A stretch of DNA of 64,000 bases, taken from positions 3,100,001-3,164,000 of the forward strand of contig JAQGDQ010000001.1 of NCBI GenBank assembly GCA_030141605.1, read 5' to 3'. Made by a program: the position numbers and the translations under genes. Source of the stretch: Tubiluchus corallicola (Eukaryota; Animalia; Priapulida). Under the pieces are notes generated by a model. The model did not search any database, was not told the origin of the DNA, and worked only from the letters and a program-made list of their open reading frames with translations. Positions 29,558-62,702 of this stretch are shown here, piece after piece. The first letter of the stretch is position 1. Every line of letters begins with the position of its first letter.

Positions 29558-32500
29558 ATGACTAAAGAACGAGTGAATGTGATCAATAGTTACTTTGTGA
29601 GGGCAATGTCATTGCATCAGGTATGTTAGAATAATTTGAAAATGAAACAAATAGGGAGTGAAAAACTGCAAAGAAGTGTTTTTATTATGATTGTTTTCTG
29701 CCAAGCTTTTCTTAACATCATAAAGGTAAATATACATGATGCATATAAGTAGCAGTACTAGACTAAGATAACAATATTACTTGCAAGTAATTTTTGTACA
29801 AGCTCATTCATTGGGAATTTTAATCTTAGAATAGGTAATATGACTAAAAGGATATATTTTAACATTTAGTTAAAATGCATCATTTTTGTCTTTTAGGAAA
29901 CAGCACATGATAATGGAATAATCAGAAGTCCATTTCCAGATGTCTCAATTCCTAGTGATGTCACTATTTTTCAGAGTGTATTTAATAATTTGGATATTTA
30001 TGCACATAGCACTGCTGTAGTAGATGCCATAAGCGGGAGATCATACACATATCTTGACTTATCTTTAGCTGTAAAGAAATTTAGCAGTGCTTTGGCGCGG
30101 AACGGATTCAAAAAGAGTGATGTTTTTGCCATTTGCATGCCCAACTGCCCTGAATTTGTCATTTTCTTTTTTGCTGTAATTGGCTTAGGTGGAACAGTCA
30201 CGCCAATAAATCCGGCATACACTACTAGAGAAATCCGTAATCAGTTATGTGATTCTGAAGCAAAATGGATAATATCTGTGCAAGAATTAGAAAAAAAGAT
30301 TTGTAATGCTACATCAAACATCGCTGCAATAAAACACAAAATATTTATGGGAGGAAAATCCTCTGAAAAGAATTTTTCTGCTGAAGAATTACTTCAAGAT
30401 AATGGTTCTTGCTTTCCAAAACATGTACCAATTGATGTCCAAACGGATGTTGCAATTTTACCATATTCTTCTGGTACAACTGGTAAGCCCAAAGGTGTAA
30501 TGCTGACGCACTATTCTATAGTTGCAAATCTTCACCAAACAAAGATACAATGGCCATTTCGACCCGGAGACAAATACATTTGCTTTGTGCCAATGTACCA
30601 TGCATATGGTATTTACTTGACGTTGGGTGCTTTAAGTAATGGTTCCAGTGTGTATTATTTGCCAAAGTTTCACCCAGATACTTTTCTTGGAACTATCCAG
30701 AAATACAAAATTACTCATGCACACCTTGTTCCTCCAGTGATTATTTTCCTTGTCAAGTCTCCATTAGTGGAAAAGTACGATTTATCATCATTTCAGACTG
30801 CGTACAGTGGCTCAGCACCATTAGGTAATTTTTAATATATGATTTACTCAGTTTTGCAATGTAAATGTCATTACAGATAGTTACTTCTTATATTAATTAG
30901 TTTTATTTTGTTGTGCAATTGTCAACATTTTTGTTGATAAAAAATGATTTGAAGATTGAACATTCTCTGTCTGAAAACACAATTGAGCAAATTTGCATTG
31001 TGTAATATCATGTGATTCCTTATAATTTCATATAGTTCTTAAATCAATTTTGTAATTAGCAAACGTATGACAATTTATTGATATCTAAATTTTGTAAATA
31101 ACTGCAAACTGTGTGTATTGAACTTTGCTCTAGATTTTACTATGCACAAATCTATTTCAGTTAAATATTTTAAATTTCTAAAATATTCTTAGTTTGTTAG
31201 ATCTAATATGTTACTGCAAGTTATGTAGTAAGAATTTATAATATTTTTATTGATATTTAGCAAAAGAAATAAGCGATGCTTTTGTGAGAAAGTTTTCTCA
31301 CTTAAAAACCTTTCAACAAGGTTATGGAATGACAGAAACAAGTCCTGTCGTATGTGCTACACCAGAATGGGAGATTTTGCCTTCTACTGTTGGATACGTT
31401 GTGCCAAATTCAGAAGCAAAGGTAATGTCAGTTGTATAAGTTTCAGTGAAGTTTCTAAAGCAATTTTTATGATGCGAAAAACGTATTGTAGATGTTTATA
31501 TGGCCTGTCGTGCTATTACTTTAGTGTTTTCTCTTAGTTGCAAAGTACTGTGATGTTTGCATTGTGTAATATCATGTGATTCCCTATAATTATATAATTC
31601 GTAAATCAATTTTGTAACTGGCAAGCGCAAAGTGGCATTTACCAGACATTCGGAATGCTTAATGCATTTTGTGTTATCCACCTGCGGAATAGCTCCTTAT
31701 AAAAAATCAATAGGAAATAGCTGCAGAAAAAAATAATGTATATTGCAGGTCTGATAAACGGGTGCATTGAAAACAGTGTGAACCGATTTTATCTATTCTG
31801 CATCTGCATAAAGCATAAACATTCCAGATGTCTAGTAAATGAAACTTCATATGGCTGGCATATAGCATATTGCATACGATCAGGTGAACTACTGGCGAAG
31901 CTGTTAGTTTCGTTGATGGACTACCAAGCTTTTTTTGTATGTGGCATAGCGCCATTTAATCATCTATTTGTATGCAACTCGTAATTGCAGTGGGCACCAC
32001 CTAATTTGAGTATGCTAGCAGTTGATTGACGAGCACATTTGTTTTATTCTAGCTCTAACAAACCAAAGTGGTTCTTATTCAGGTTGTTGATTTAAAGACT
32101 GGTGAAGCGCTTGGTCCTAATAAAGAAGGAGAGATATATGTAAGAGGTCCTCATATCATGAAGGGTTATTTGAACAATTCTTCTGCTACTGCTGAAGCTA
32201 TAGATTCTGAAGGATTTCTTCATACTGGGGATACTGGCTATTATGATGAAGAGGGGTATGTCACATATTAAATATCGCCATTTGTACAGTTTAGCAACAA
32301 TATTCCAAGAAGGGAATAAAAAATGACTAAAATGACTTTTAAAAGTTGACGTTGAACTTTTAAAAATCTGCATGCGTTATTAATAGTAGAGCATCTTAAT
32401 TAGTTAAACAGACCTGCGAATTCTCATTACATTAATTAGGTATGTATCACCAATGCACATGCACATTCGAATCAGATTTTAGTACTGATGCATTCCACAA

Positions 32501-33964
32501 CTTCACATGCAAGTTTGCACATTGCTTGGCTTCCTTTGCCATTAGTATGCCTGCTACTCTCAATAATATAGTAGCGCTTATAGTCCTATAATGTATGTTA
32601 TACTAAAGGGTATTACAATTATTGGAAATTAAGCACTTTTGGGTATTACTGAGCTTTTTTCATATACCGACTATAATACATTAGTAGTACACCTGCTACT
32701 CTCAATAATAGAGTAGCGTTTATGAGTCTTATAATGTATATTATACTAAAGGGCATTACAATTATTGAAAATTAAGCATTTTTGGGTGCTACTGAGCTTT
32801 TTTCATATGTACAAAGGAACATATTTATACGTATAGCATAGTGAGCTATAATAACAGCTCAGTAGTACCATAAAATTGTCTTAATTTTAATTTTTTGCCT
32901 TAACTTTTTCGTAATTTGATTTTGATAATTAAAAATGCAAAAATTTCTGCAGCAAAATTTGTCACCTGGACCCCTGCCAGAGCGAGATGATCCCCGGGCT
33001 TTCTACATTTCACACCCGTTTTTACTTCAAATAATTGGGAAGTCTTGTTAAGATAAAGCATATCTATTTAAAGGTCTTTGATGTTTTTCAAAATCAGTGC
33101 ATTTTCTTGCGCTTGTTGACATACACATTGTATGTGACTAGGTCTTAATAGTTCATAAAAAATTAAAAAAATATTCTTATAATATTGTCAAGTCTTTAAA
33201 TTACTTGCACTAAATTGTGTATGTTGTTCTGCATATTATTTTAGTGAAACTTGGTTAGTACAATAAAGTAGCAGTTAACTTGCCCACTAATTTTGGTACT
33301 ACCCAACTAACTGTCTCATAACAAACTCCTAATTTAAGAAAGTTACATGTGATATTGCAGTTCTCCTAAAATGCTGCACAGATTTACTTGTTTTTTATAG
33401 CGAATCACATAAATAAAAATGAATAAAGCCAAAATACTGAAGAAGAATAAGAGAAAAATAAAGCCAAAATACTGCAGACTTACAGTATTGAATACTGAAT
33501 ACTGCAAACTTGCATTCATAATGATTTAAAGGTACTAAAATTATGATTTGCTTATTACTTAGTGGTAAACAATGTGAACTGAAACATTATTTAGCAATAT
33601 CTTATTAATTTGCAGGCATTTCTTCATAGTTGATCGAGTAAAGGAGTTAATCAAATATAATGCATACCAAGTGGCACCAGCAGAGCTTGAAGCATTGCTC
33701 CTTTCTCATCCGTATGTAGCTGATGCCGCTGTTATAGGAATTCCTAATGAACGCACTGGGGAGCTTCCTAAAGCATACATAGTAAAAAAGAACATCGACC
33801 TGACAAGAAGAGAAGTTCAGAAGTTTATAGAGAAAAATACAGCACCATTCAAGTGGCTCAGAGGTGGAGTGGAGTTTGTGTCAGAAATACCGAGATCTGC
33901 TAGCGGGAAAATTTTGCGAAAGTCTTTGCGTGATAGAGCAAGAAATACTAATGCAAAATTATAA
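29558..33964 (+). CDS. Luciferase-like / 4-coumarate-CoA-ligase-like acyl-CoA synthetase, paralog 1 (C-terminal PTS1 AKL)
   Basis: Exons 29558-29620 ([21 protein letters not shown]; acceptor at 29530), 29897-30824, 31261-31421, 32083-32255, 33616-33964; 557 aa from this ATG. Motifs: [40 protein letters not shown]. The true start may be further upstream. Confidence 0.93.
32541..32807. repeat. Imperfect ~140-bp tandem duplication in the last intron of paralog 1
   Basis: attagta..cctgctactctcaataatat..gtagcg...actgagcttttttcatat occurs twice. Confidence 0.85.
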
Positions 33965-37372: not shown

Positions 37373-40300
37373 ATGAAGAGCATGTGGAAAATGCCATCTG
37401 CGAATGCTAGTGAAAGGCTTGGCAGGATATCTTCACATTTGTGTGATGACAGGACATCTTATGTTGTAAGTACTATTAATCAATTTTATTTTTCTTGATG
37501 GTGAAAACGAGTCATAGCACACAAAGAATTGTAATGCTTTCCTTTTGACTTGTCATGCAGCTCTGATCTTTTCCTTTCTTAGCTGACTCCAGCTTATAGT
37601 AACAGTCGCTTTATGTACATACTCACACATGTGCGCCCGTGTGTGTGCGCTTGCATGTGTACACACGTGTGTGTAATCAATAGAAACATGTTGTCATGCT
37701 AATCTTAAGATTCACATTTAAAAATGCATACAAATATAGATATTTGTTCCTCACAAACGTTTTAGATGCTTCAGAGGTTTACGTATTTATTTCTCACGTT
37801 AAGGTCTATGTTTAATGCCTTGAGTCTGGACATGAACAGATTGCCAAAATAACAATACACGTTAAGAAGTCTTTTGGAGATTGTCAGTCTTATCCATGTG
37901 TTTACCTCTTTGCTTATTGTAAGAGGTAGCATTAGTAGTTCTCAAAGTAGAAATTGCAAAATTTATGAAAGTTTGTGTGAAATATAATGAAACGTAAAAT
38001 TTGATTGTTTTTTTATAGACAAATCGACTATGCCATGAGGCCAGTTCATGCGAGTTAATTGTGAGAAGCCCATTTCCTGATGTCTTTATTCCTAACAACT
38101 TGCCACTCTATCAGTTGCTCTTGAAAGCTGGCACAAAATACCCAAACAACTTAGCCGTAGTTGACGCTGTAACTGGACAATCATATACGTATCATCAGTT
38201 ACACAAAGTAGTCAGAAAACTTAGCAGTGCTTTAACCAGACAGGGGTTTAGAAAGGGTGACACCCTTGCGTTATGTGTTCGCAACTGTCCGGAGTTCGTT
38301 ATAGTCTTTCTTGGTGTTGTGGGCATTGGTGGAATATTATCACCAATTAATCCTTTATACACATCTTATGAAATACGTAGTCAGCTGCTGGACTCGGGGG
38401 CGAAATGGATCATAACGGAAGTGGAAGTTCAAGAGAAGGTTCGTGACGCAGCAGCAAGACTGTCTGGAATGCGAGGTTTTTTTATTGTGAATGATAAAGC
38501 ATTTCAAAAGAAGTCTTCATTTGGTGGATTGCTAGAGGATGATGGTTCTGCTATTCCTGAGTGCATAAGAATTGACGTTAAGTATGATGTAGCTGTACTA
38601 CCCTACTCATCAGGAACTACAGGACTGCCCAAGGGAGTTATGCTAACCCATTACAATTTGGTAGCCAACATTCACCAAGCTCAAGCTGCATGGCCTTTTC
38701 TGCCAAACAATAAGTACATTTGCTTTCTGCCAGCTTTCCATTCATATGGCATATTTCTCTTACTTGGTGCACTAAGTCATGGATCTGGCATATATATGCT
38801 TCCTGGGTTTCAACCAGAGACTTTCTTGAGTAGCATACAAAAATACAGGATCACGCATGCTCATCTAGTACCTCCTGTGATCACATTCTTAGTTAAATCA
38901 GCAATGGTGGATAATTATGACTTGTCTTCTCTGCAGACTATTTACAGTGCTGCAGCTCCCTTAGGTAGTAAATGATATGACCTTTTCTTATTTGTTTTTC
39001 TGTTAATGTTTGACTTTTCTAAATAGTGCAAATAATTCTAATAGCTTTTTCTTTTTAAAATTTTTCATAGAGTTCTCAAAATATCGAATTTAAGAAGAAA
39101 ATGGCAGTATTTTTCATTAGATATAGAGTCAATATTTTAGACATGTAACCATCAGTGACTATTAATTGCTTTAGTACATATCATTTGCTCACCATTGATC
39201 ACACTGTACTTCACATTGGGCTGTGAGTGACATTAGGTTGACCAAATTGTAGGCCTAATTTGCTGCTGGAACTTCGAAAGCTATCTTTGTTTACCTGCAA
39301 AAGAGCAAGAAAGGAATCATGCAAAAATTACCAAGTTTAGTTGGTATTATTGTTCATTCAGAATCAGCCTTTTATTCAGATATTGTGTTGCAATCAGAAA
39401 AATTACGCAGATAATCAGAAACTAATAAAAGCATTTGCAGACAATGTTTAAATTTTAAGGTAGTATCTTTGCCTATAGTACATATCCTGTAAATGTTATG
39501 AGTGCATTTCTTTAGATACATCAGTTTTATTATACCTTTTTGGTGTCAACAATTGATGGATTGTCACTGTTTGTTTAGCGAAAGACATTGGTATGGCGTT
39601 AATGAGAAAATTTTCGCACCTCAGGGCTTTTCAGCAAGGTTATGGTTTGACAGAAACGAGTCCAGTCGTAACAGCTACACCGGAATGGGAAATCATGCCG
39701 GCTACATCAGGTTATCTTATACCAAATACAGAAGTCAAGGTACATACAGATTTTGGTTTTTATGGAATCTTAACTGAGCAGTAATTAAAAGTATTAAGAG
39801 GTTTTGTTAATCCTTGATAGCCAGAGTAATAATCATGCCCTGTATTTAGTTTCACATTATCTTGAGTATAACGCATGAATTAAAGTAAATTTCCAGTTGC
39901 TTTGTTAGGTTTCAGCTAAGTTGAATCAAACTAGTTTCTTCATTAGTTTCAATCAAGTATTTTTTACTTCAATAGTAGCATTTAGTTTTTGATATACAGC
40001 TGTACTTGCATCATTGTGAATAATATTAAACTGTGGCTACGTAACTTGCTAAGAATTTTTGTATCTCATTACAAGTATTTTGATTAGTTTAGAGTCAGAG
40101 CAGCCATTAATTTAAGGTTCTTTTAATTTGCGAATTCTGGCTGATGAAAGGGAAATGTTTAAGTAGGCACAATCAATGCCTTGCAAACTGGTGCTTAAAA
40201 TGAAGTTTCAAAATTTCATTTGCCATGTTTACAAATTATGTGCCTTGTTGAGGGAAGATACAATGTTTTGCACATGTATCTGAATGCAGCTACTGTATAA

Positions 40301-43300
40301 ACAATCTGTGCTGATTTAATGTTTTCTCACCTTCATGAACTTCATCACCTTTCAGCAGCCCTTTCAACAAGTGCTAGATCCCGCTTGCAGGGTGATAAAC
40401 AGCATAAAAAGTGGCTGGTATTATAAAGAAAATGAACATTTTGACTACATTATAATGTGCATATTAATATCAATTATAACACAGTTTTCTTTATGTTAGG
40501 TTGTACATCTTGAAACTAAGGCAATAGTTGGGCCAAATGTGGAAGGAGAAATCTGTGTGAGAGGCCCTCAAGTGATGAAAGGATATTTGAATAATCTAAA
40601 AGCCACCAGTGAAAGTGTTGATGCAGATGGTTTTTTCCATACAGGTGATACTGGATATTATACTAACGATGGGTAAGAAATTTGGCATAGTGTGTATTGG
40701 TGTTACATAATGTTAGTTTTAGGCCACGGCATGTGCGTAAAAGCAATTGGGAAGGAGGAAGATAGTGGTCAGTTTTTTGCGACTGAGTTTGATTAAAATT
40801 TAGATTAATGAACCAACAGTCTTCTTGCATTTCTGTTCTGTGTACGATGGAGGGGCGGTTGGAGGGGCGGTTATACTTAGATAAGATCTAGTAGTTATAA
40901 TGCACAGAATAAAAGTAAAATTTGATCTATCATTAATTGAAAAATGAATAAACATCATTCGAAAATATGGAGCAGTTAAGCTGAAAACTGTTACATGATT
41001 TGTTATTAAGGGATTTCTGTTTGATTGTTGCACTGTTACAGGTGCTAATCATTTGCTGGCACACAAATGGTGAATGGCATGAATGGCTACACTGCTCACA
41101 GTGGTTAAAACAATGTGCAAGTTGGAGCATTATTCCAGTAACACAACAGTTAAAAATCAATCATTATAGATTTTAATGTTCAGATATAAAACCATCCCAA
41201 AAACAAGCATTTACATTGAACTACTGTTGAAGTGTGTTTTGGTTATTTATTTATTTATTAAATATACCCACAACGATCATTACAGCATAGCACGTAAAAG
41301 AATTTAATATCATATTTATCATTATGTACACAAGATGCCAAGCTGCAAATGATCCGTGGGATACTCAAGAAGTAATTACTTGTTCAGAGCACCCCAAATG
41401 AATGTGGATTGAGTGTAGTAGAAAAGAACAGTAAATGAGTAGAAAGGAAAAGTTAATAGGGAATAAAAAGAAAGAGAAAGATGTGATGGTATCTGTATGA
41501 AGTAATGCGAACTATAGAAATGTAAAAATCGACATAGATAGCAACGCGATGGATCCCGACAGGGACAGCAACATAATTAGCCAAATTTATTTCTTCTATA
41601 TAATTAGAAAAGATTTCACTTTTACAATTTCTTTTGAAGTTGTTTATAGATAAGAATTTTTTATGTATTCGTTGATGTTATTCTAAAGTCTAGGACCAGT
41701 GTTAGTGATGAAGTGCCTTGCCGCATCAGTCCTGCAATACTTAATTAGAAATTCATTAGATCTTGTTTAGTAATGTCTTACATTAGTAGATAATGGGTTT
41801 AAAAAGAAAGTGGGAAGTAGCTTATGTTTGGTTTTGTATATGTAAATAGTGGTATTTAGATTTATTTGATCATTTAGTGCTAGGATAGAATAGTTCTTAA
41901 AAAGATTAAGACCTACATTTTTACGCTTGTTCAAATTAGCTATCAATCTTATGAACTTACATTGTAGAGAGTTTAATTTAAGTATAGATGAAGGGTAGGT
42001 GTGCCCCCAAAATATATTACAGTAGGTTAAGTATGGCAGTACTAGACAATTATAAAGTGTGATAAGATGTTCTTTAGTAAAATAATGTTTCACTCACGTT
42101 TAACGCAATTTTAGAATGAATCATATTTAAGTGTGGTTTCCAATGTAAGCGTTCATTTAAGATAACACCTAAGAACTTCATTTCATTTACTTGTTCTACT
42201 GCATTGCCATTAATTTTTATAATACTGTTCATATTTATATATTGTTACTAGCTCTGAATAAACTGTATTTACTTTTTGTTGAATTTAATGCAAATTTGTT
42301 GATTATAAACCAGGCTGTAATTTTACCGAGTTCACTATTAATAGTGTCAAGTAGCTTGCTGTTTATCCTGAAGATAATACTTGTGTCATCAGCAAATTGG
42401 AAGACCTTTCCATTGTCAGTAATACAGTTTTGTAAGTCATTAATATATATTAAAAGCAACAGAGGTCGAAAAATAGATCCCTAGGGTACGCCATGTGTGA
42501 CTATTGCTTCATTGGGAAGGACATTGTTACATCTGACTACTTGAATTCGGTCCTTGAGGTTATTAGCATTCCATGAGTATGCCACCCTTCTAATGCCATC
42601 CTGGAATAATTTATCTAGCAAAACATCATGATTAACTGTATCAAAGGCCTTAGAGAGGTTGCAAAAATGCCAATGGCAACAGTGTTTTGTTCTAATGAAT
42701 TAATTATGTTGTTTATTATATTAATTAGGGCTAGCCGTGTAGAACTGCCCTTTCTAAAGCCATGCTGATGATTATAAGGTGCATTTTCTATGGTCAAGTA
42801 GTCTAATAATCTTTTATAGACAATTTTTTCTAATATTGTAGCAAAAAAAGCTAATAATAATATAGGTCTATAGTTATTAATATTTAAGGAGTCTTTAACC
42901 TTAAATAAAGGAATAATTACTGATTTGTTTTTAGTTGATAAGGTAATATTCCTGTTGTCAATGAGCGATTTGTTATATGTGTTAAAGGAGCAGCTAAGTT
43001 ATCAATTAAATCAATTATGACTTTGGGTAGAAAATTATCAAAGCCTGCCCCTTTATTATGGTTGAAAGATTTACAAGTAGATTTTAATTCATTTATTGTA
43101 ACAGGACTGAACATAAAAGCAGATTAATAATCACCCTTAAGATAAACTTTAGGGTTAGCACCAGTATTTGGAATTTCTGCAGCTAATTTTTGACTAATCT
43201 GCAAGAAATGCTCGTTGAAAGCACAAGTGACAGGTTAATTGTCAGTTATTATAACTTGCTCTTACCTTTAAGGGCATATGAACCAGATTTTCTATCTGAC

Positions 43301-45967: not shown

Positions 45968-46045
45968 ACCTGTGTGGTGTAATGGTTGCATATCTGCCCA
46001 GAAAGAGGAAGGTTTTGTGTTCGAGTCCTAGTTGAGATGCAAATT
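45968..46045 (+). mobile_element. tRNA-derived SINE-like relic
   Basis: A-box-like TGGTGTAATGG and B-box-like GTTCGAGTCC at tRNA spacing, followed by a T-run; no intact cloverleaf. Confidence 0.45.
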
Positions 46046-48487: not shown

Positions 48488-48793
48488 AGCCAGATGATTT
48501 GAGTGCAAAATTTAGCTAACATATATTAAAACTGCAAGGAGAATTTCAGAATGCTAGTTAAATAATTAAATAATAGTTGTTTAAGTGACTACAGTATTAT
48601 TTTTTATAAGCAGAAGTTAAGTCTTAAAAAATCACGAGCCAAGTGCAGCCAAATTTGAGTGCGAAAAATAGCTAATGTATATTAAAACTGTAAGGAGAAT
48701 TCCAGAATGGTAGTTAAATAATTAAATAACAGTTATTTAAGTGTCTAAAGTCTTACTTTTTATAAGTAATAACTAAGTATAAAAAATCGTGAG
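48488..48793. repeat. Imperfect ~160-bp tandem duplication
   Basis: agcca...tttgagtgc.aaa...agctaa...tattaaaactg.aaggagaatt.cagaatg.tagttaaataattaaataa occurs twice. Confidence 0.85.
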
Positions 48794-49880
48794 ATCTGAG
48801 CCCCATGATGTGAATGTTCTGATTTTCTTATTTCTGTTTACAAATATTAATAAAGTGAGGAAGTTCTATAAACTTTGATCATATAAAATGCAAATATAAC
48901 TTGTCTTTAGTAAGTTTTTGCAACATATATTCACTGCAAATGTGAATGCGAGAGGATGAGTTGATTTGCTTGGAACATTACTCTCTTTTTTAAAAGCTGG
49001 GTACTTCACCAGCATTACTGTTATAGTCAAGTGCCAGTTGAACAGTAGCTGCAGGTTCAGGAAAATATTCTTTTTGGGGTGAAATTGAAAATCTTGATGT
49101 TTAGTGTGGATCACTAACCTGGTGTTGTCGCTAAATAAGGCACTGTCATTAGGCTGATTTTGCTTAAGCATATTTTATACTTATTTTTATCCTTTAATGG
49201 ACGAAACATGAAAAGTCCAAAGAAAATTCAAGAAAACTCAAAAAAAAAAATCAAGGAAATTCAAAAAGACAAATTCTACATATTTAAAGGCCTCTCAATA
49301 GTAACAAAGATTGGCTATGTAATTGAAATTGTTATTATGATTATATAGTTTGCATGTCACATTAAAATTGACAAAATGATTTATGTACTTCCTCAATAAA
49401 ACAATTGAAATTGCAAACTGAGGCATAAGTTCAAAGTTCAAGATTATGAAGTGCAAGCTCTTGAACAGGATCAATAAATTCCAAATGGACTCATCCAAAC
49501 AAAAACCAGTGGCTAAAGAATGACTTTATACGTGTTTTTGCTAAAATGTTTTTTAAAACACAAAAACTTTGTATAACTAAGCTTTTGTGTGAGGTGCAAA
49601 CTGCAGTCTGTGTTTTGGCTCATTGCATTTCTGCTGCCATTTACTAATGATGCAATAAACCCGTTGAGCTTGTTTTATTTACATAGATTATTACTTTTTT
49701 TAGTTAGTTCCCAAAATGCAAACTGGCATCACTTTACTATAGAGTGGTCTAGGAGTACTATATCTGGCAACACAGGAGTTCATTAATTTGTTACAGAAAT
49801 CCCTACTATGTAAGTATAGCTAGAAAGACTGGAAATTGTTGTGCTTGTTCAATAATTAAGATTTTTATATGTACAGATCA

Positions 49881-49904
49881 ATGGTCAGTTGCTTCAAGAT
49901 TCAG
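49881..49904 (+). CDS. Candidate initiator micro-exon of paralog 3 (MVSCFKIQ)
   Basis: tacag|ATCAATGGTCAGTTGCTTCAAGATTCAG|gtacta. The ATG at 49881 ends in phase 0 and joins in frame to the acceptor at 51181 or at 51966. Confidence 0.4.
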
Positions 49905-50648
49905 GTACTATCCGTTTGGAGTTTTTGTTAATGTAAATGGATTCTTATGGTTATTTAACAAATGGATTGCCATTTCTACCAGCATTTTTTGCATTTTCAT
50001 TTTTTGAGTCTACTCGGCACCTAATTTAATTACCATTCACAGTTGTGAACACGTGGGGTTACTTTTATTTTGTAATCACCTGACTGTACATCAACAAGGC
50101 ATTTGTGACTTTATACGCCAGCTACTTGTTGTCTTGTACTAGCCAAAAAATTGATTTACTCTAAGTTTAAGTGTAATTTAACTGGGAAAGTTCTGAATCC
50201 CGTCATGAATAGTGTATTACTATGCTTTCACCATGTTTCTTTTCGTGCACTTCTAAGGCAGCTCACGTGTAGTTTTGTGTACGTAGTGCCTTCCTCATCA
50301 TACTCAGGGTTGCCAGACGTCCCTTATATACGGGGCATATACGGAGCAATCAATTATCCTATGTTTGATAATTTTGTCCCCTGTCTCTTTCCTGACCTTT
50401 CAGGAAAACCCAAATGTCCAGTTTTTAGTTCATTTTCAAATTTTGTAATAAAAATATATTTTTACTACCTTCTTACGGTTCTTATTAGTAACTTTTCTCA
50501 GATTCTCTTGATGAAAATAATTCAAATGTAACAATTAAATAATAATAATATTTTTCTGTTGGCTGTGTTAAATAATTTTCAAATGATTTTGCTTTTTTTC
50601 CACACAACCAGTTAAAATCCTTGCTTTATGTTTTTAACTTGTCTCTAT

Positions 50649-50752
50649 ATATTGGTTTCATATAATTATATATATAAAGTTATATATATCATGTATCATG
50701 ATATTGGTTTCATATAATTATATATATAAAGTTATATATATCATGTATCATG
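50649..50752. repeat. Perfect 52-bp AT-rich tandem duplication
   Basis: atattggtttcatataattatatatataaagttatatatatcatgtatcatg x2. Confidence 0.9.
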
Positions 50753-51180
50753 TATAAATATAAATATAATTATATATAAAACATATATATATGGTAAGGT
50801 ATAGTAATTTACATTGAAAATAATTGGCAAATAGAAAACTTGCTGGAGATTTTAACAATAGCAAATTTTTTTCCGTTATTTATTTTTTGTCTTGTTGTTT
50901 TAAAACTTCTGCATCTTAGGAAGAACCTAAGAAAATGTTCTAAAATTTTTGATGTTTATACCTAACTGCTTGAACATCAGTCTGGTAAAATTTTAAGTGA
51001 CTCTGTTGTTTTCTATATGTAATATCATAATCAAAATTTTTGCACATTTTTGAGCCACTTGATGTATGTATAAAAGCAAAAATTCATTGGCTTTATGTCT
51101 CATGTATTAAAGCACTTACATTAGCAAGCAAAAGCATAAAATCTTGACCAGTTTTATCTCGAGTAGTTTCATTGATTCAG

Positions 51181-54100
51181 CTTTGTAACTTCAGGTTGTC
51201 GAGTCGTATTGACTGGGTTAGAGAGACAGTTAAAACAGGTACATCTTTATCAGCAGCTGAGAGATTGAAAGGGCTAAAGGGACACCTATCTTGCCATTCT
51301 TTGGTATGATGCCTGATCATTACTGACTTATAATCTTAAGATTCTATAATCTTAATATTAAGATTATTATTAATGATGGTACAAATCTGCAGTTTATTGT
51401 ATCTAAAGACCATATGTGAAAAATAGGTTAAAGTGTTACCAGTAGGGGAACTGCAGGCTCAACATTAAAATTAATTCAATTAGTAGTTAGAACTGCTCTA
51501 GTATGAGTGATCTAACTTTGGAAATGCTGAACTGGCGGACCAGCTACAAGTGATTAACTTTGGATTGTTACAATTGGAACTGATTAGTCTAATGGCTTTG
51601 ACATCTGCTTTGTCAGCAGATAGTCCCTTTTCAAATGCAGACTATGTTCGAGCTTTTTTACATTTCTTGATTTTCAAGTTCAATTTTCTAAATTCAGTTA
51701 ATTGTTTCTTTGTACCATTGCATCTGACTGTGTAGCTCATTAAACAGTATTACGAAAATGAAGAAACATTTATGTTAATCAATTTTAATTTGGGATAACA
51801 GTATTAACTCTTAATTCATATCTTTTATAAAGTGTTAATAAATTATAATTATTTGCCTTACTGCCAAAAAGCAAAATCGTGATGCCGATTTTGAGAAAAG
51901 GATGATTCACTAATGTATAGTACATACGTAGGGTGCATGGACATTAAAATAATTTTGTTTTTCAGCAAACAGTTGGTTGTAGCAGCTCTAGTCAGTTCTT
52001 CGTTCGCTGCCCATTTCCAGAAGTTTCCTTGCCTGATAATGTAACTGTATCTCAGTTCTGCTTACACGAATGTGACAAACATCCTGATCGCGTTGCCTTA
52101 ATTGATGCAAATACAGGTTTGATGTACACTTATGGGAAGTTAAAAATTTTAGTGAGAAATTTTGGCTACTCACTGGTGCAGCTGGGTTTTAGAAAAGGTG
52201 ACGTATTTGCGATATGTTCTCCGAACTCTCCAGAATACATTATCGTTTTCTTGGCAGCTGTTCAACTTGGAGGTATTATAACAACTACTAATCCAGAAAA
52301 CACTGATCATGAGCTGTATGGCCAGTTTGTAGATTCGGGCGCAAAGTGGGTGTACACAACGTCTTTGATACAAGAAAAGGTTGGTAGTGCAGCTATAAGG
52401 ACTGGTCAAATACGGAAGATTATAGTTTTGGGAAATGCACATTTTAAGGACACTGTAACATTTGATGACTTGCTTCAAAGCGATGCACCAGCATTTCTAA
52501 ATCAATGTAAAATTAATGTAAAAGCTGACTTGGCAATATTGCCGTATTCTTCGGGAACTACAGGAAAGCCGAAGGGAGTTCAGTTGACACACTACAATGT
52601 TGTAGCGAACAATCTCCAGGCTCAACTGCAATGGCCATTCAGACAAGAAAACAAGTATCTTTTTCTTGTGCCAATGTTTCACATTTATGGCACTTTTCTT
52701 ATACTTGGAATTCTGCATAGTGGTGCTGCTTGTGTCATCTTGCCCAAGTTTCACCCACCTGATTTCTTGAACACCATCCAGAAGTACAAGATAACTCATG
52801 TTCATCTTGTTCCACCAATCATTAATTTTTTGGTGAAATCTAGCATGCCAAATACCTATGACTTGTCATCATTACAAACTATTTATTGCGGTGCAGCACC
52901 TTTAGGTAAGATTTTCACATCTTTTCCGAAGATCTATTTTTTTAGTAAAGTATGTCTCAGAAGTTGGTTTACATTTTGATGCTGCTTACGGTTACAAGAG
53001 TTAATGCATCAACCAAAATATAGGTGTTTAAAATAAGGTCAAAATTTTTAGCCAGATATTCATTAAGAAATAATGGAAACATTGGCATATGTTGTCATCG
53101 TTAAAATGAACTGTTGTTATATGGGGAGTTGTTTTAACTCTCTCCATCACTTTCAATATTGAATGATAAATTCAGAAACCAAAGTTGCCGTAAGAGGTTG
53201 TTAAAAATAAGAGCTTGACTGCTTTTAGATATTCTTGAAACTATATGTACGTGTGGCTTTGTGGCTGTTTTTTAACCTCTAACATTAAGGTTTTGACAGT
53301 TTAACATCTCATGAGTCTTTTATTAAAAGAAAAGTCATGGCTGTTGTTGGCAAGTTGACTTATTTTAACATCTGAGAAAAATGTTATAAAGTTTAAGCAA
53401 TAAAATTCCCATAAGCGCCTCTTGTAATTAGTGGCAGCAATTTGAAGTAGTGATCATTTCACGCTATTCATTGGGTGCACTCATTATGAATGAAAAATGA
53501 CATCGTTCGGTTACTGTGCAATATCAACCCTTCAGTGCTTCATAGTGTTTAAGCGAACTTTTGCAAATGCAGGCACTGTTATTAACTATAAACTATCCAA
53601 AATATTAAAGGAGAGATTATAAATACTGTTTTTTTATTAATCTGGTTGCCCACTGTGTAAGGAAAGCAATTACTGATGACAGAACAGTAATACGAAAATC
53701 TGGCTAGTTAACTCCCAGAGAGCAACAGAATAATTAGTTTAATAAGCTAAAACTCAACTTTATAAGCTAGGTAACCCACCTGACATCAGTACGTAGGTGC
53801 AAAATTGCACGCTTGTCTAAAAGTCAACATATATCTGTATGTCCAGTACAATACTTGCGATTTTTAAGATATAATCCTGTGAATTAAAACTGTGGAATAA
53901 GGTAACATAACAAGTATTAGCAATGTAAGTTGATGCTAATTGAGCGGATGACTAATTTTTACAAAAACATAATTAAACACAAAGATTTAATCAGCTAGTG
54001 AGTGAACTCCAGAAATTTTGCTATGCGTGCCTTCGTGCTGTCTGCTAGCTTATGTAATTTTTTTCAAATGTGCCCGCAGTGAGGCTCGCTTAGTGGGAAA

Positions 54101-55991
54101 TAAGAATTTAAATTTCTCTTGCATTTTAACAAGGTGTTTTATGCACGCATATTGTGTAATAATTTTAATATTTTTAATTGCTTATTAAGATACAATGAAT
54201 GTCGTTTGAGATTAGTTTTCCTTTTAAATTCGAGTTTGTGGAATATGAATTTTAGCTTTAATTTATTGTTGCTTCATTGGATAAATCTTTCTTACAAAAT
54301 TATTATCACTGCTGACTTAACCACTGACCTGAACTGCAAGTGCTTAAACCAAAGTTTTACGGCAGGTTTATCCATCTAACTGACACTTTTTCTCGTTTCT
54401 TATTAGCAAAAGAAGTAGGAGATGAGCTGTTAAAAAAATTTCCAACTTTGAAGACTTTCCAGCAAGCTTGGGGTATGACTGAGACAAGTCCTATTGGCAC
54501 GGCTATGCCGGAAAACGAGGCATTTTCTGGCTCAGTTGGCTACCCTGTGTTAAATACAGAAATGAAGGTACTTATTTAAACGCAGTTACAAATCCTATAA
54601 GAATTTTTGTTCTAACGCTTCTGCCCTGTTTCGTAATTACGTTAGTGTTGATTGTGAATTGCCAAATGTTTTTTAAGTATTGTTAATGTTGATTTAGGTT
54701 GTTGACTTTGAAACGGGTGTATCGCTTGGTCCGAACAAAGAGGGTGAACTGTGGCTTCGAGGACCTCAAGTGATGAAGGGCTACCTCAACAACCAGACCG
54801 CAACTAACGAATGCATTATGGCCGATGGATTTCTGCGAACTGGAGATACTGGATATTACACTGAGGATGGGTAAGTATTTGTTCAACACATTTCAAAGCT
54901 CATATAAATCTTAAGTGGTGACTTATGACTGATTATTTTCTTTTAACTTTTGAACAGATTGTTCAAAATGGAGTTTGTAAACTAACATAGATGTAGCAAA
55001 AGCAGCAATAATAGTATGTTAATTTTAAACCACTTAAGAAAGTAAAAGGGTTTTCCTTTATTTTTGGTTCCATTTCAACATGGCTTTAGTTGCAAAAATG
55101 ATCATCTAAATGTGGATACAAAAATTTTGAAAACTGTTTAGTAGGAATTGCTCAATGAGAATCGAATTTTCTGTAGCTTTTTTCTTTGAAGAAACCATGG
55201 ATAGGGTTAATGATGGTACAAACCCCACAATTAATGAAAGAAAGATAGGAAATGTGAAAAGTTGTAATACAACCAAGATTTGAACCAATACCTGCAATAT
55301 TGAAAATGCTGAATTTGGGTGGCCATCTATAAGGCTGTACTTTGGACTGCCTTGATCACTGAGAATTCAGTTGCCTAGTGGTCTAAGGCATCTGACTTTT
55401 AAACAGGGTCCCTGCCACCTGGTTCGAAGTCAAACTGTTTTCTCAACTTTTTCAAATTTTCACTCATTCAAGCTTCTATTAAAATTTAATTGTTGCTTTT
55501 GTACCATCACCATTAATAATAATAATAATGATAATCATGAACAATCTTATTATTATAATAATTAATGGGTAGGATTAAATTGTGGAGAGGTAAGACGAGT
55601 TATGAAAAAACTGTAGGAAGGTAAATGGCAATTGCTTGTTTTCATTTATAGGCATTTCTTTATCATTGATCGAGTAAAAGAGCTCATTAAGTACAATGCA
55701 TATCAAGTAGCACCAGCTGAGTTGGAAGCGCTGTTGCTGACGCATCCTGGTGTAGAAGACGTTGCTGTAATTGGAATTCCAAATGAATGGTCAGGAGAAG
55801 TACCAAAAGCCTTTGTTGTGAGGAAGCATGACAATGTGACAAAGAGAGAGTTGATCAAGTATGCTGAGCAGAGACTTGCACGTTATAAATGGATCAGGGG
55901 CGGTATTGAATTTGTACCAGAAATTCCTAAATCACCAAGTGGAAAAATCTTAAGAAAAGTTTTACGGATGAAAGAAAAAAGTAAACTTTAA
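51181..55991 (+). CDS. Luciferase-like / 4CL-like acyl-CoA synthetase, paralog 3 (PTS2 and PTS1 SKL); start-codon exon probably further upstream
   Basis: Exons 51181 (or 51195)-51303 (...AAERLKGLKGHLSCHSL), 51966-52905, 54407-54567, 54698-54870, 55652-55991. Motifs: [31 protein letters not shown]; ends KSKL*. The PTS2 exon has no in-frame ATG. Confidence 0.92.
55366..55440 (+). mobile_element. tRNA-derived SINE-like / pseudo-tRNA relic in the last intron of paralog 3
   Basis: TTGCCTAGTGGTCTAAGGC (A-box/D-arm-like) and GGTTCGAA (B-box); stems degenerate. Confidence 0.45.
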
Positions 55992-58485
55992 TGTTTTAAA
56001 GTAAGTTAATGTAGATTTTTGAATGCTAATAAGTGCCAAATGACCACATATCAAACGCACATTCTAATAAGATTTTCTTGCAACTTTCAATAGAAGTTAA
56101 CTAAAGTTACTACGTAAAGCTGTTAACATTATCAATATCTGATGAATGATCTAAGTATTTTTTGTAAGAATTTAAGTAGTAGTTGTGTTGCATTCATCTT
56201 TCCATGAGGAATGTAGTTTAGCATTATGTCGATAAAACTGTTAAATTATTTTTAGAGATGTAATTATAAAAAAAACTAACATATATACTGTAATTGGAGT
56301 AAGACGTTACACAAATGTAACTAGTACCAAAAAGTTGTTCCAAATTTGTGGAACTGTAATTGTAACTTTTCCTTTTTTATTGTAATTTGCAATGGAAATA
56401 TCAGTTACTTGTACTATTACATTTGTGTAGAATGAAACGAATGGTTTGTCATACTGCAAGTTGTAACGTACTGTTTAATGTTGTACATTTGTACTCTGCC
56501 CATTACATTCATCTTTTACTACTTTACAATAGATTGTGATACAGTAGTTTCTGTTGTACAAGCCAGCAGCCTGACCTTTATTCTAGAATGAACTTTGATG
56601 CCTCATACCCATTCCAAACATGATAATTTCATGTAACAGCTGCTTTTTATAAGAAATGTAACTGTAACTAATTACTTTACAGATGGTGGGGAAGAAGTGT
56701 AACTGTGACCAGTTACTTTTTTTGACAGTGTACCTGTACCAAGTTATATTTTCAAGCATACATCTGTAATGGTAACTGATATTGTTGTACATTAATAAAT
56801 GAACTATTCCAATACTGCGTACATATATAATAGATTTTGAGGGTCTTCTGTCAGTTTAATAAGCAGTCGTTTTTGCATTACTGGTAACATGAACTACAAT
56901 TTGTTTTAGTCTGTTGCAAATGTTGTTGCTTTACATGGTGGTGTTGGAGATTTTATATTTTTTTGCCAAATTGTGATAATAATAGTCTTTGGAAATTTTC
57001 AAAAACAGCATTTTTATGCACATAATATTATAGAAACTAATATATTTATGAATGCATGAAATTAGCTAATTAAGAAAAAAATTTACGATAAGTTTTTTAA
57101 AATTACAACTATGTCTTGTCAAAATAAAAATATTATAAAGATCATTGTCAGTTATACGGAAATTTAAAGCATAAATAAAGACTAGTTTTATTATTTCTGG
57201 CTATAAGTCACTACTGGTATGTTTCCAACCACCAAATTCATGACAATTTTAGCATTTAGTTACACTAAGCCAAAAGTAACAGCAAGAAAGCAGTATCATC
57301 GAATTGTTACTTGTCATGAACTATTTAGTACAACAATAATGTTGACAGCACTTGATGGTAAAGACTGGATGCTGGCTCATAGATAGGATCGATCAAACTC
57401 ACTAATTTACCATAATATGGTTTCAATTTATATTTGTTTATGTACTCAGATTTGGGGTCTACTCTAGTGCCACTCAGTTCAGCTTAATGTCATCATTGCA
57501 GTTGTGGGCTTGTGGCAGCCATCTGAATTAGGCATAACATTTTTAAAAATAAGTTAGGCCTATCTGTTACTATAATTATCAAATTTTCTTAAGTTTTTTT
57601 CACTAGTCTGTGCCGCAGACATGTTGGCCTTTCTTTTGTCATTTAACATGAACTGTGTCACAACAAATTATTATATGTCTAGCTGGTTGGAATGTTCTTC
57701 GTTTGGCCACCTACCTTTTCGCATATTGGTGCACATTTGCTATGCACAAATCACAAGTTTATTTAAAGTCAAATACTGTATAACAGTTAATAACCTAGTT
57801 GACCTGATGAATAAACAAAATAGCAAATTATTTTTCCTTCAAAATTTGGTTGTAAGTATGCTACTTCACACATATCGATTGAGCTATAAAGCTAGGACTG
57901 CTTGAGTTCTGGTAGACAGTTGCAAAGATTTGCTTAAAAAATTGCAAAAAAGGTTGCGCGATTAATGATTCAGTATCGATGACATCGTGAGCCTATGCGA
58001 ACTCATAGTAGTAACTTATAAGCCTTCACAGTAGTTTACTAAATTGAATATGCTAAGTAGTTAGAATGCAGTCAAACGTCTTTGTTCCATCCACATTGGG
58101 ACTGTAAAAAAGTTGGCAGTACAGCGAGTTTGACATTACAACGAAGTGCATTAATACATACATGTTTATCCAAATAATATTATAGGCATTTTATTTTGCT
58201 AAACATTTGGGCATTGAGCGAGGACAGCAGTATAAAGTGGGGCGTTATAATGAGGATTTACTGTAGTTGCTTAATGTGTTCTTGTATTCTTATCAAAAAA
58301 GTTAAAAAGGTCAGATGGTTATGTTTAGGATTTTCGGTCTTACCAAATGTCAGTGCTCTACTTGGTGTCATTGTGTTCGTTAGCTGGTTTATTTGTGTTA
58401 CAAAACCACCTATGTTATTTATGTTTAATTATGTTAACTGAATTTTGATTCCAAACTGGAAAATGTATGAAAGAGAAAAGGTTTG

Positions 58486-58548
58486 AATGCATCCTGGATT
58501 TGAACAAGGGAGTACTGGGCCTCCATACAATCAGTTATCGAGGCAGCC
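58486..58548 (-). mobile_element. tRNA-derived SINE-like fragment
   Basis: The reverse complement contains ctcccttgttcaaatccaggatgcat, matching the copy at ~17470. Confidence 0.4.
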
Positions 58549-58749
58549 CAAGTTAATCCCTTATGGCTGTCCTATTAAATTAGTCAGCATTTCCACGCAT
58601 GTGATTAATTAATTATCATAACTTAATGAGTTAACTAGTGAATTTGTGCTTAATTGCTTGATACTAGGTGGCGCAACGAGCCGCATGTTCGCAGGCTATA
58701 GCGAATTTTCGTTACCTGGTGTTGGCGAAATACAGCAGGTAGGTCGAAG

Positions 58750-58937
58750 TTTTGCTGGGTTCATCAACAATGGTTAACACCTTCGTAAGACGCTTCGTAC
58801 AGTTTTTTGTTTTCTTAAAGTTGTGATCGCATCTAATAACCTCTACGAAACTTTTGCTAATTCCATGATAAGCCTAGGAATGTTCTTACCATTCGAATGA
58901 TCTTACGTTCGTAAGAAATTTAGTGAATCCGCGCCCT
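58750..58937. mobile_element. Possible PIF/Harbinger-type MITE remnant
   Basis: The right end reads GGGCGCGGATTCACTAAA on the minus strand, resembling Harbinger TIRs, with cttacg/cgtaag subterminal motifs. The left end is unclear. Confidence 0.3.
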
Positions 58938-59190
58938 GGTTTTTATTTAGGATATTCATAAATCATATTTATTCACAGAAATGGGCGAAGAGGTGTGGGT
59001 ATAACATGTTAATTTAAAGGCGAATACTACACGTAATACGTGCACCACTTCTTTACAGGTTTATCAGGGTAACAGATCGTCTAGCTGGCTAAAAAATTAC
59101 CGACTTGTATAAAAAGTTACTGGCATATAAGACTAGTTTACACATTTTTATGTATTGGTTCGTTACAAAGAGTTAATATAATTATATGTA

Positions 59191-59326
59191 TAGATCTCAG
59201 CATGATATTGCACTACACAGATGTGTGTGAGCTACATATATATATTAGGTTTCACATATGTGTGTATGACCCATGAACATTACGAGCTACACACGTCTGT
59301 GTGGTGCAATATCATGCTGAGATCTA
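59191..59326. repeat. Near-perfect 136-bp hairpin (~40-bp arms), probable miniature foldback element
   Basis: tagatctcagcatgatattgcactacacagatgtgtgt pairs with acacacgtctgtgtggtgcaatatcatgctgagatcta; TA at both ends. Confidence 0.88.
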
Positions 59327-59437
59327 CCTCTTTATTTACTAGCTTATTTCAAATATTTCTCTTTGAGTTTAATTGCAATAGAACTTTTAACAATTGCTGC
59401 AGTTTGTATTGTACAAATTATGTTTTCAGCATTAGAT

Positions 59438-62400
59438 ATGGCAAACAGAAATTACTTATCATTACCAAGCAAGCCAGTTGAGGAACAACTGCAAAGAACA
59501 TTTGGACACACGGTCAAACCAGCAGCTCTGGTATGTTAAATTTGCTAGTTGATTATGATATCAATTGCATTACTATAGGTGTTCATATGCTTTTACTTTG
59601 AAATGTTTGGATGTTTTGACATGTTAGCAGCATTGCAGCAGCCACACTTTGTTTAAAAATTTCAATGCCATGGCAGCACATCCAGACATTACAAAATAAG
59701 AATTATGAGAATGGTCATCTTTTTGAACTGTCGGTTCAATGATGGCCAAACACATGACTTGTTGATTATATCTATGATACTGTTTGAAAGTTCTGTTGAA
59801 GCTAATAAAAACATGCAGTGTTACTTCTCCAGATAATTTACAAAGACTTTTAATTTCAAATCATCTAACAAAAGTTATTATTTGGAAAAAACTTAATATT
59901 TCATTTTTGATCACTACAGATGCTATAGGCTGTATGATTTTCGGAAAAATGATAAATATTTTTAGATAAAGAAAATTTATTAAACGTTATTATTAGAATA
60001 TTTTTTTCAGAAAATTGCATCGTGTAGTGCACAAGGTAACATCATCAGAAGTCCATTTCCCGATGTTGATATACCAGATGTTTCAGTTTATCAGCTTTTT
60101 CTGAACAGTTGTTTTGCATACCCACAAAATTTAGCAGTCGTTGATGCTGAAAATGGCCAAGCATATACCTATGAACGATTACTGAGATGCGTAAAAAAAT
60201 TTGGCAGTGCTCTTGTACGGAGAGGATTTAGGAAAGGTGACATATTGGCAATATGTGTTCCCAACTGCCCAGAGTACGTAATACCATTCTTTGCTACAGT
60301 GGCTATTGGCGGAATAGTAACAACAATAAATCCTGTTTATACTGCAAATGAAATATATCATCAATTGCAAGATTCTCAGCCAAAATGGATAGTGACAGCA
60401 CCTGAAGTACTAGAACGTGTCTCTCAAGCTGTTGATATGAAAATGGGAAATGAAGTAGTCATTGTTATTGGGGAAGAAGTGACTAAAAAGCATTTGTTGT
60501 TTTACAACTTATTAAAAGATGATGGAAACGCCTTCCCAGAATGTGTTCCAATAAATGTGCAAAACGATGTAGCCATTTTGCCATATTCGTCAGGTACCAC
60601 AGGGAAGCCAAAAGGAGTAATGTTAACACATTACAATTTAGTAGCCAGTGTGCATCAGACAAGAATGTGTTGGCCTGTTGCACAAGAAAACAGATATATT
60701 TGTTTTCTACCTATGTTCCATTTATATGGAATCTTTTTAACTCTGCTTGCGCTAAGTCATGGAGCATGTATCTATTATCTTTCAAAGTTTGAACCAAGGT
60801 TATTTCTTCAAACACTGGAAAAGTACAAGATAACACATGCACACCTTGTACCACCCGTTGTTAACTTCTTGGTCAAGTCGCCACTTACAATGAAATATGA
60901 TTTGTCAAATCTTGAGAAAGCTTACTGTGGAGCTGCTCCATTAGGTAGGTGTGTAGTGCAAGTTGCTTATTTTTCTTCAATAGTCCGATCATCATCACAG
61001 TAACTTTTAACAAAGAAGTCAGCGCTAGTAAAAATGGTTATAAGAACATCCGCATTGATTTGGCAATTGTGGTAGGCCTGATCTAATATGGGGATGATTT
61101 ACACTTTTTGTACTTTCAGGAAAAGAAACTAGTGAAGAACTTCTACGAAAAATTTCGTCATTGCAATTGTTGCAGCAAGGTTTTGGCATGACAGAAACAA
61201 GCCCTGCTATCACCGTCTGTCCAGAAACAGAAATGATTCCATCTACTGTAGGATATGTTGTGCCAAACTCTGAAGTGAAGGTAACTAGTAAAAGTGGTTT
61301 TTAACTCTTATTCAGTTAGGGAACATTTATATTTCCGAAATTACGTTAAATTTTTATAACATTTCTGATTATTGTTGTAGGTTGTTGACTTACATAGCGG
61401 AAAAGTTCTTGGCCCAAATGAGGAAGGTGAGATCTGTGTACGAGGTCCCCAAGTGATGAAGGGGTATCTGAATAATCCAAAAGCAACAAATGAAACTATT
61501 TATCCTGATGGTTTTTTGCATACTGGTGATACTGGTTACTACACTGATAAAGGGTCTGTACTAATGGAATTTGATAATTTAGAGTTTAAATACCACAGAC
61601 CCCTAATGTGCAATTTACATCACAGTAACAGCAGTGCACAAGAGTGTGTTGGCCTGTTGTATGAATGTATTGTATTACATTCATGACAAGTAAAATACAC
61701 TACATTAATCCCATATTGCAGCAACACATTTTACCACATTTACGATTATTCATCTATTTTTTGTGTAAGAAATGTCCTAAGTGATATCTTGCTGCTGCAT
61801 ACTTCTTACAGATTACAGTCAGTCAACAAAATTGAACAAATATAGTTAATACAGTGTGATTTTGCAACCTATTACTATTATTATTAGTTACTTAAACTTT
61901 GCTGATAGTGGCTATTATTTAATATTTCCCTAACAGCTTTTTTCATGCCATTATAATAATGATCCACCAACTTTTCTTAAACTTCTGTGGTTCATCAAAC
62001 CAGCAATTTTGTTATTGTTGTCTAGTTATTGGCATCTGAGCTTTTAATTTTATACAGTGTCATAAGAATGTGAATTGAGAGCTTCCAATTTTTTGATACA
62101 GCTGAAAATTGTTTAGTTACAAATTTTGCAGCATGATTTCTGTTGACATCTGTAATCGTTGAGATTTTGTTCATTTAAGCACCAGATTCAGATTTCGGGA
62201 TTAATAATTGCTTGTTGTAATATAGGTTTTTTTTCAGTAAAATATTTTCTCATGAAGTGTTATGGAAGTTAAACGTTGAGAATTGATGGTTTGGGTAAAT
62301 AGGTGCCACACACTTAGTAACCTTTGTTCACTTGCATTGATATATCTTTTCAGACTTTTCTACATTGTTGACAGAGTGAAAGAACTCATAAAGTACAACG

Positions 62401-62702
62401 CGTACCAGGTAGCACCAGCTGAATTGGAAGCATTACTAATATCCCATCCTGGTATAGAAGATGCAGCTGTAATTGGAATTCCTGATATGAGAACTGGTGA
62501 AGTCCCAAAAGCATTTATAGTGAAAAAAGACAAGACCTTAACTGGAGAACAAATTAAGATGTTTGTGAAGCAAAATGTTGCAAATTTCAAACAACTGAGA
62601 GGTGGACTAGAATTTGTGACTGAAATTCCAAAGTCGGGCAGCGGTAAGATTCTCCGAAGGATACTGCGGGAGAGAGAGCAACAAATTCGTAGTAAATACT
62701 GA
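59438..62702 (+). CDS. Luciferase-like / 4CL-like acyl-CoA synthetase, paralog 4 (degenerate PTS2, non-canonical SKY terminus)
   Basis: Exons 59438-59530 (MANRNYLSLPSKPVEEQLQRTFGHTVKPAAL), 60011-60944, 61120-61280, 61381-61553, 62354-62702; 569 aa. Motifs: [31 protein letters not shown]; ends IRSKY*. Confidence 0.93.

Follow-up and report, generated by a model that had tools for sequence, protein, structure and literature searches.

Organisation of the ligase cluster

The window, by which we mean the whole stretch of DNA analysed here, comprises 64,000 nt of contig JAQGDQ010000001.1 of the priapulid Tubiluchus corallicola (3,100,001-3,164,000, forward strand). Searched with tblastn, it contains four paralogous ligases in tandem (genes 1 to 4), which resemble 4-coumarate:CoA ligase (4CL) and appear to differ in their peroxisomal targeting signals, namely a type 2 signal (PTS2) encoded by a small first exon and a type 1 signal (PTS1) at the C-terminus. 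All four genes have five exons, separated by GT-AG introns of phases 0/1/0/2, and are free of internal stops; the large exon 2 measures 928, 946, 940 and 934 nt in genes 1 to 4 respectively, and the predicted proteins 557, 573, 569 (counted from an ATT codon) and 569 aa. Pairwise protein identity among the paralogs is 52-61%. Synonymous divergence (dS) is near saturation (1.7 or more) while nonsynonymous divergence (dN) is 0.29-0.39, which makes these old duplications whose coding cores have been under purifying selection. The gene models are as follows; the first exons of genes 1 and 2 are predicted from sequence only.

29558..29620, + strand: gene 1, coding exon 1, from ATG to a phase-0 donor (21 aa)
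29897-30824, 31261-31421, 32083-32255, 33616-33964, + strand: gene 1, exons 2 to 5, ending in AKL
37373..37465, + strand: gene 2, coding exon 1 (31 aa), with three in-frame ATGs ahead of the PTS2
38019-38964, 39579-39739, 40500-40672, 44503-44851, + strand: gene 2, exons 2 to 5, ending in KKCQVL
51208..51303, + strand: gene 3, small coding exon, without an ATG; its join to exon 2 is confirmed in the orthologous protein P0001
51966-52905, 54407-54567, 54698-54870, 55652-55991, + strand: gene 3, exons 2 to 5, ending in SKL
59420..59530, + strand: gene 4, coding exon 1 (ATG at 59438, a further in-frame ATG at 59420); a contig from sequencing run X2 matches 59423-59530
60011-60944, 61120-61280, 61381-61553, 62354-62702, + strand: gene 4, exons 2 to 5, ending in SKY

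Evidence for the small first exons

An earlier, sequence-only reading of this DNA had placed a nonapeptide in a small exon of each paralog, spliced in phase 0 onto the large exon, and had given the C-termini as AKL, QVL, SKL and SKY. Our models agree with it on all of these points: the four nonapeptides lie where it had put them, the GT donor that closes each small exon joins it to the large exon in phase 0, and the four C-termini are as read.

Evidence from other sequences bears on genes 3 and 4. P0001, a protein of 569 aa encoded on a 2211-nt contig from a relative, is 89.5% identical to gene 3 and crosses from the small to the large exon at the join predicted for gene 3, keeping both RLx5HL and a terminal SKL. 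Two sequencing runs were also compared, with read contigs placed over 44900-64000 and 50800-52300. Run X1 contains 0.45 of the sequence words; run X2, whose identification as RNA is the tool's guess, is about 84-94% identical to the window and hence comes from a relative. The X2 contig match over the first exon of gene 4 stops exactly at the predicted donor, 59530, and X2 contigs bridge introns 2 and 3 of that gene; the joint between exons 1 and 2 is itself not among the X2 matches listed.

The segments also resemble one another. When each was compared with the other three, it was their best match among all upstream stop-free 13-mers, ranking first of 2548, 1638, 3082 and 1725 for genes 1 to 4, by margins that were slim for gene 1 (10.7 vs 8.0) and gene 4 (12.0 vs 10.3) and for segments that had initially been chosen by eye. 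A phase-0 donor follows 4-10 codons after 348 of 11,245 random stop-free 9-mers, and 95 have an upstream ATG as well, the spacing having been set after seeing the data.

Directly 5' of the gene 1 ATG lie short out-of-frame upstream open reading frames (29511-29562, + strand), one of which overlaps that ATG; they might lower translation or be the trace of an older start.

Targeting signals at the two termini

The four nonapeptides, as read from the sequence, are:

29570..29596, + strand: gene 1, RVNVINSYF, a degenerate PTS2 with Tyr (TAC) at the His position
37415..37441, + strand: gene 2, RLGRISSHL, a PTS2 fully matching the classic and extended consensus
51262..51288, + strand: gene 3, RLKGLKGHL, a PTS2 that conforms at all five key positions and has Lys at X4
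59486..59512, + strand: gene 4, QLQRTFGHT, a degenerate PTS2 with Gln in place of Arg, and Thr both at X3 and in last place

The pattern (R/K)(L/V/I)x5(H/Q)(L/A) is matched by genes 2 and 3 and by P0001, and unmatched by genes 1 and 4, whose motifs are damaged at different positions; the Tyr codon of gene 1 is a single transition away from a His codon. A large hydrophobic residue occupies X3 in genes 1, 2 and 3, and gene 2 alone conforms at X4 to the extended consensus as quoted in the relevant part of PMC4585086. Elsewhere in the window, the PTS2 pattern of the sequence-only reading occurs 14 times among 69,780 stop-free six-frame 9-mers, and against this background the probability that two of four exons of about 31 codons should match is about 1e-4. 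A looser pattern, allowing Lys at X4 and Phe in last place, departs from PMC4585086, and its P value was left unused.

In an AlphaFold2 model of P0001 (77-sequence alignment, mean pLDDT 90), pLDDT is below 50 for residues 1-40, which include a helix at 16-23, and the confident fold begins at about residue 41. In this model the nonamer lies outside the fold, and an N-terminus of this kind would fit a presequence. Genes 2, 3 and 4 and P0001 have a Cys 10-13 residues beyond the nonamer, and gene 1 has none; PMC3830196 describes a Cys close to the sites at which PTS2 presequences are cleaved.

At the other end of the proteins, AKL of gene 1 and SKL of gene 3 and of P0001 are canonical PTS1 sequences, and QVL of gene 2 is not a PTS1. 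Nor did gene 2 yield a hidden PTS1 by way of a cryptic donor after 44842, as a phase-0 PTS1 was obtained from none of the 158 acceptors further downstream. Its end, KKCQVL (44831-44851, + strand), places Cys-x-aliphatic-Leu after basic residues at the position where the others have a PTS1, and corresponds to what we take to be a CaaX-like pattern for geranylgeranylation. The SKY of gene 4 is canonical, canonical and non-canonical, residue by residue, in the extended plant PTS1 formula tabulated in PMC12316961, and it figures as an internal plant motif in the section of PMC12125578 concerned; our literature search found no animal test of SKY as a PTS1. Because SKY fits the extended plant formula, a state of gene 4 with neither signal is unproven.

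Enzyme identity

In Pfam, the AMP-binding domain PF00501 and its C-terminal companion PF13193 (AMP-binding_C) were matched on exon 2 of gene 1, exon 5 of gene 4 and P0001, and in the alignment the P-loop, TGD, hinge and catalytic lysine motifs are intact in all four copies. In P0001 and the four window genes the hinge motif of exon 5 is YNA, a form found in 7 of 167 matches, against YKG in 129 of the 167. By sequence, the best solved match is a plant 4CL (3a9u, E 1e-113); by fold, it is again a 4CL (5bst, E 4e-65, TMq 0.85, about 41% identity), with luciferases ranking below 4CL at 33-37% identity. The description of these genes as luciferase-like in the sequence-only reading calls for correction: a luciferase identity was rejected, 4CL entries being closer in both sequence and fold. 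By analogy with 4CL, the probable reaction is the conversion of fatty or aromatic acids into CoA esters, without light emission.

Phylogeny and distribution of the signals

The finished tree comprises 36 rows and 556 columns, and left out the tandem or fused proteins P0258, P0274, P0314, P0319, P0321 and P0334, as well as P0312, all nonribosomal peptide synthetases (NRPSs) and most bacterial matches. The four genes and P0001 form a clade (support 99/97), within which gene 3 and P0001 are sister to genes 1, 2 and 4 (97/91), the latter having no resolved order among themselves. The sister of the whole clade is P0002 (98/93), a 362-aa protein that stops close to where the large exon finishes. It lacks a PTS2 and has no visible alignment to the small exons; with eight basic residues and one acidic residue in its first 35, its N-terminus looks mitochondrial-like, a judgement from composition.

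Outside this clade, none of 24 non-NRPS representatives has a PTS2 in its first 90 residues; the search for representatives was dominated by NRPSs, these 24 being the rows under 1200 aa among 149 others. Among 160 fetched full-length homologs (450-700 aa), a PTS2 was present in P0001 and no other, most of the set being bacterial and thus uninformative. The homologs from other animals, at 41-46% identity to P0001 or gene 3, are of two kinds. Those of Aplysia (XP_012942397.1) and Pecten (XP_033752286.1) and an Ephydatia cluster have a basic N-terminal extension and lack a PTS1, and those of Owenia (CAH1791176.1 and CAH1786802.1) and Ciona (XP_002127963.1) have SKL or SRL and lack the extension.

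A search for orthologs gave P0001 for gene 3, and no orthologs of genes 1, 2 or 4 among the best 120 of 3676 matches at 188-601 aa, among 16 matches to the N-terminal region, or among the best 120 of 215 fragment matches (best 45%). Among metagenome contigs, 148 pattern matches included no relatives, and the exon-1 pattern had no match; an atlas search with P0001 residues 1-75 returned short clusters only.

An ancestor bearing both signals is the simplest reading of the tree, because each of the two lineages from the first split includes an intact PTS2 and a canonical PTS1. The earlier proposal that both signals were ancestral and were lost differentially is supported by the tree, by P0001, by the intact PTS2 of gene 2 and by the distinct lesions in genes 1 and 4.

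Origin of the targeting states

In proposing how these states arose, we regard the following as probable, though well short of certain: the cluster consists of old, intact 4CL-like tandem copies descended from a dual-signal ancestor, which have shed redundant signals, so that genes 1 to 3 would be peroxisomal and gene 4 weakly imported. A redundant pair of PTS1 and PTS2 would decay independently after duplication, with losses that we suppose to have been mostly neutral. Gene 1 is predicted to be imported through PEX5 by its AKL, and gene 2 through PEX7 alone by its RLx5HL, from an unstructured presequence of about 40 residues that would probably be trimmed near the Cys. Gene 3 could use either route, provided that translation begins upstream of the PTS2, and the gene 4 product might enter weakly by SKY, piggy-back on another protein, or be partly cytosolic. 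Four old copies, each with two signals to lose, would be expected to show a spread of states. On our best reading there is little relocalisation, gene 4 alone needing to change compartment. To claim all four targeting states for the cluster goes too far: the dual state of gene 3 depends on a start codon that lies outside the small exon, and the empty state of gene 4 is qualified by SKY as a possible PTS1.

Several observations weigh against this interpretation. The small exons of genes 1 and 2 lack transcript support, and the exon-1 donors rank 4 of 139, 37 of 193, 8 of 149 and 17 of 157 in genes 1 to 4 by a 12-intron matrix, with rival phase-0 donors accompanied by an ATG at, for example, 29725 and 37803. 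The Lys at X4 in gene 3 falls outside the extended consensus as PMC4585086 quotes it. Between P0001 and gene 3, 7 of 9 residues of the nonamer are kept, compared with 24 of 32 in exon 1 overall; since the nonamer is no more conserved than the rest of the exon, this pair does not support selection on the PTS2. The neutrality of the losses is an assumption, and some animals are without the PTS2 route, as the pertinent section of PMC7710942 relates. Finally, an ATG precedes the nonamer in gene 2, and the small exon of gene 3 has none, a point that the sequence-only reading missed; the first in-frame ATG of gene 3 is at residue 85, inside the folded core and after three out-of-frame ATGs, and 51164-51220 is uncovered by X1 and X2 reads. 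Two features bear on where gene 3 might begin:

51208..51210, + strand: ATT codon aligned to Met1 of P0001, within the uncovered interval
51062..51069, + strand: candidate upstream donor (after 51063), which with an acceptor at 51194/51195 would produce a split ATG and a 131-nt intron

The candidate donor is strong and is preceded by AT, and the acceptor is followed by G, which would put the ATG five codons ahead of the ATT. A donor of this kind is found within 60-300 nt of a random site in 4% of cases; a stronger, competing acceptor at 51181, 14 nt upstream, would not yield an ATG. In-frame AGG, TTG and ATT codons of gene 3 also lie upstream of its PTS2. One X1 contig is identical to the window over 51221-51371; in gene 3 exon 2, run X1 differs at 51996, 52524-52525 and 52625 (two amino-acid changes and one silent change), so that the run is likely to represent another haplotype or individual. 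For the start of gene 3, weighing roughly, we give a start-loss allele or an assembly error a nearly even chance, treat an upstream exon with a split ATG as a tentative possibility of slightly lower standing, and think a near-cognate start codon unlikely.

The dual state may be unrealised in this genome, the ATG of gene 3 having changed to ATT to leave a weak or null allele or an inefficient near-cognate start. This reading concerns gene 3 only, is compatible with our favoured explanation for the other genes, and is in our estimation somewhat unlikely. It is consistent with the alignment of the ATT to Met1 of P0001 at the same length of 569 aa, and with the position of the first in-frame ATG; no X2 contig falls on gene 3 exons, which is no evidence of silence. 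Set against it, the remainder of the gene is intact (476 of 525 residues identical to P0001 over residues 45-569), the donor after 51063 could supply a split ATG, and the Met1 of P0001 may presumably be a GTG or TTG start called by a gene finder of bacterial type. An inefficient near-cognate start has a parallel in Pgd1 of Ustilago maydis, where, according to the portion of PMC7214817 on this gene, the PTS2 isoform initiates at a near-cognate AGG AUU. Another reading is that the first exons assigned to genes 1 and 4 were never PTS2 exons, being unrelated or mis-assigned, and that the signal was common to genes 2 and 3 only. Chance alone gives a match at three of four positions, like that of gene 1, in 10-17% of peptides of exon size; a second 13-mer scores as high as the gene 4 segment when compared with the intact motifs, and there are stronger donors nearby; together with the slim margins reported above, these would favour mis-assignment. 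We consider it very unlikely, as both segments nonetheless come out top of their comparisons, lie in frame with an ATG and with a phase-0 donor, and stand 17-18 residues from the start of the fold, as in gene 3; moreover, the X2 match ends at the gene 4 donor, and gene 2 groups with genes 1 and 4, so that their shared ancestor had a PTS2 unless the signal originated twice.

The remaining alternatives concern what the signals do. The copies might have been relocalised by selection, gene 4 to the cytosol and gene 2 to a membrane, anchored by a CaaX-like end that replaced the PTS1. Gene 4 has three key changes in its PTS2 and a non-canonical last residue, and in gene 2 the cysteine pattern follows basic residues and the stop falls where it does in genes 1 and 4, Cys being 1.7% of residues. 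We judge this unlikely: gene 2 retains a perfect PTS2, the CaaX match was spotted post hoc, with no gene 2 ortholog among the matches listed, a literature search for CQVL and prenylation found no paper, and SKY of gene 4 fits the extended formula as given in the table of PMC12316961. It is also conceivable that the species lacks PEX7, in which case the motifs of genes 2 and 3 would be vestiges or belong to a different N-terminal signal, for instance a mitochondrial presequence. Many animal homologs, P0002 among them, do have basic N-terminal extensions and no PTS1, and PTS2 resembles other N-terminal signals, as part of PMC4585086 sets out. This reading is, to our minds, highly doubtful, for an exact RLx5HL in two synonymous-saturated paralogs and an ortholog is unlikely to persist without its receptor, and the first 35 residues contain 2-3 acidic residues in the window genes vs 0-2 in the mitochondrial-like set. 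The boldest version would combine several of these elements: a mitochondrial-type presequence, still present in P0002, became a PTS2, the resulting new class of animal PTS2 cargo had a PTS1 as its second signal, and the copies were truly relocalised as PEX5-only, PEX7-only and prenylated, dual with a split or non-AUG start, and cytosolic forms. We think this improbable. That a presequence turned into a PTS2 is put forward as a hypothesis only; if true, it would be a natural instance of a gradual change termed unstudied in 2015 (PMC4585086, section 25).

Other features of the window

Upstream of the cluster are exons of a CLK-family protein kinase (10213-12434, + strand; best PDB match human CLK2, E 1e-12) and an exon at 19080-19289 (- strand) that resembles archease weakly and short of the cut-off (PF01951, E 2e-4). 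Broken fragments of a reverse transcriptase resembling those of long interspersed elements (RVT_1, E 2e-5) lie at 41770-43596 (- strand), inside the 3.8-kb last intron of gene 2. Together with the spliceosomal introns, the kinase and these fragments suggest an animal genome. Imperfect palindromes, 77-84% self-complementary, occur at 59191-59326, directly upstream of gene 4, and at 23146-23212. Searches for tRNAs and against Rfam gave no match.

Comparison with known systems

The window genes have analogues in several systems. Plant 4CL and 4CL-like peroxisomal acyl-activating enzymes, which belong to the ANL superfamily, share their domains, P-loop and C-terminal lysine motifs; the 4CL-like enzymes of Arabidopsis and rice consulted in PMC3355810 carry PTS1 only, whereas the window genes add a PTS2 exon and introns of animal type. 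Beetle luciferases, insect CG6178 and the PACS/ACS enzymes have the same fold and include paralogs with and without a peroxisomal signal, but unlike the window genes they are credited with no PTS2 in the portions of PMC7522259 and PMC10798137 that describe them, and Drosophila is without the PTS2 route according to the corresponding part of PMC7710942. The Pgd1 gene of Ustilago resembles gene 3 in having a PTS2 in frame without an upstream AUG; however, as that section of PMC7214817 has it, a downstream AUG gives the main, cytosolic form, whereas the next in-frame ATG of gene 3 is inside the fold.

In its passage on mammalian PTS2 cargoes, PMC3830196 names thiolase, alkyl-DHAP synthase and phytanoyl-CoA hydroxylase, and a literature search, with subscription papers and supplements outside its scope, found no animal 4CL- or luciferase-like ligase with a PTS2. 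If import does take place, the cluster would be a new family of animal PTS2 cargo, and its four sister proteins would gauge the cost of dropping one import signal when the other is present.

A precedent is found in Arabidopsis, where, in the account of acyl-CoA synthetases within PMC3355810, LACS6 has PTS2 only and LACS7 both PTS2 and PTS1; the same account has rice ACX3 and ACX6 losing PTS1, and PTS1 being gained and lost between species. Like the window genes, LACS6 and LACS7 are peroxisomal acyl-CoA synthetase paralogs that differ in PTS1 and PTS2, but they belong to a different ANL subfamily, in plants, and form no four-gene tandem cluster. Switching of import route without change of organelle would thus have a precedent in plant acyl-CoA synthetases, and plants already provide cases of the core phenomenon, in which paralogs retain different signals for the peroxisome. 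The fresher point here is the rarity of PTS2 among the homologs, together with a sister, P0002, whose N-terminus looks mitochondrial-like; this sister offers a way to test the origin of a PTS2.

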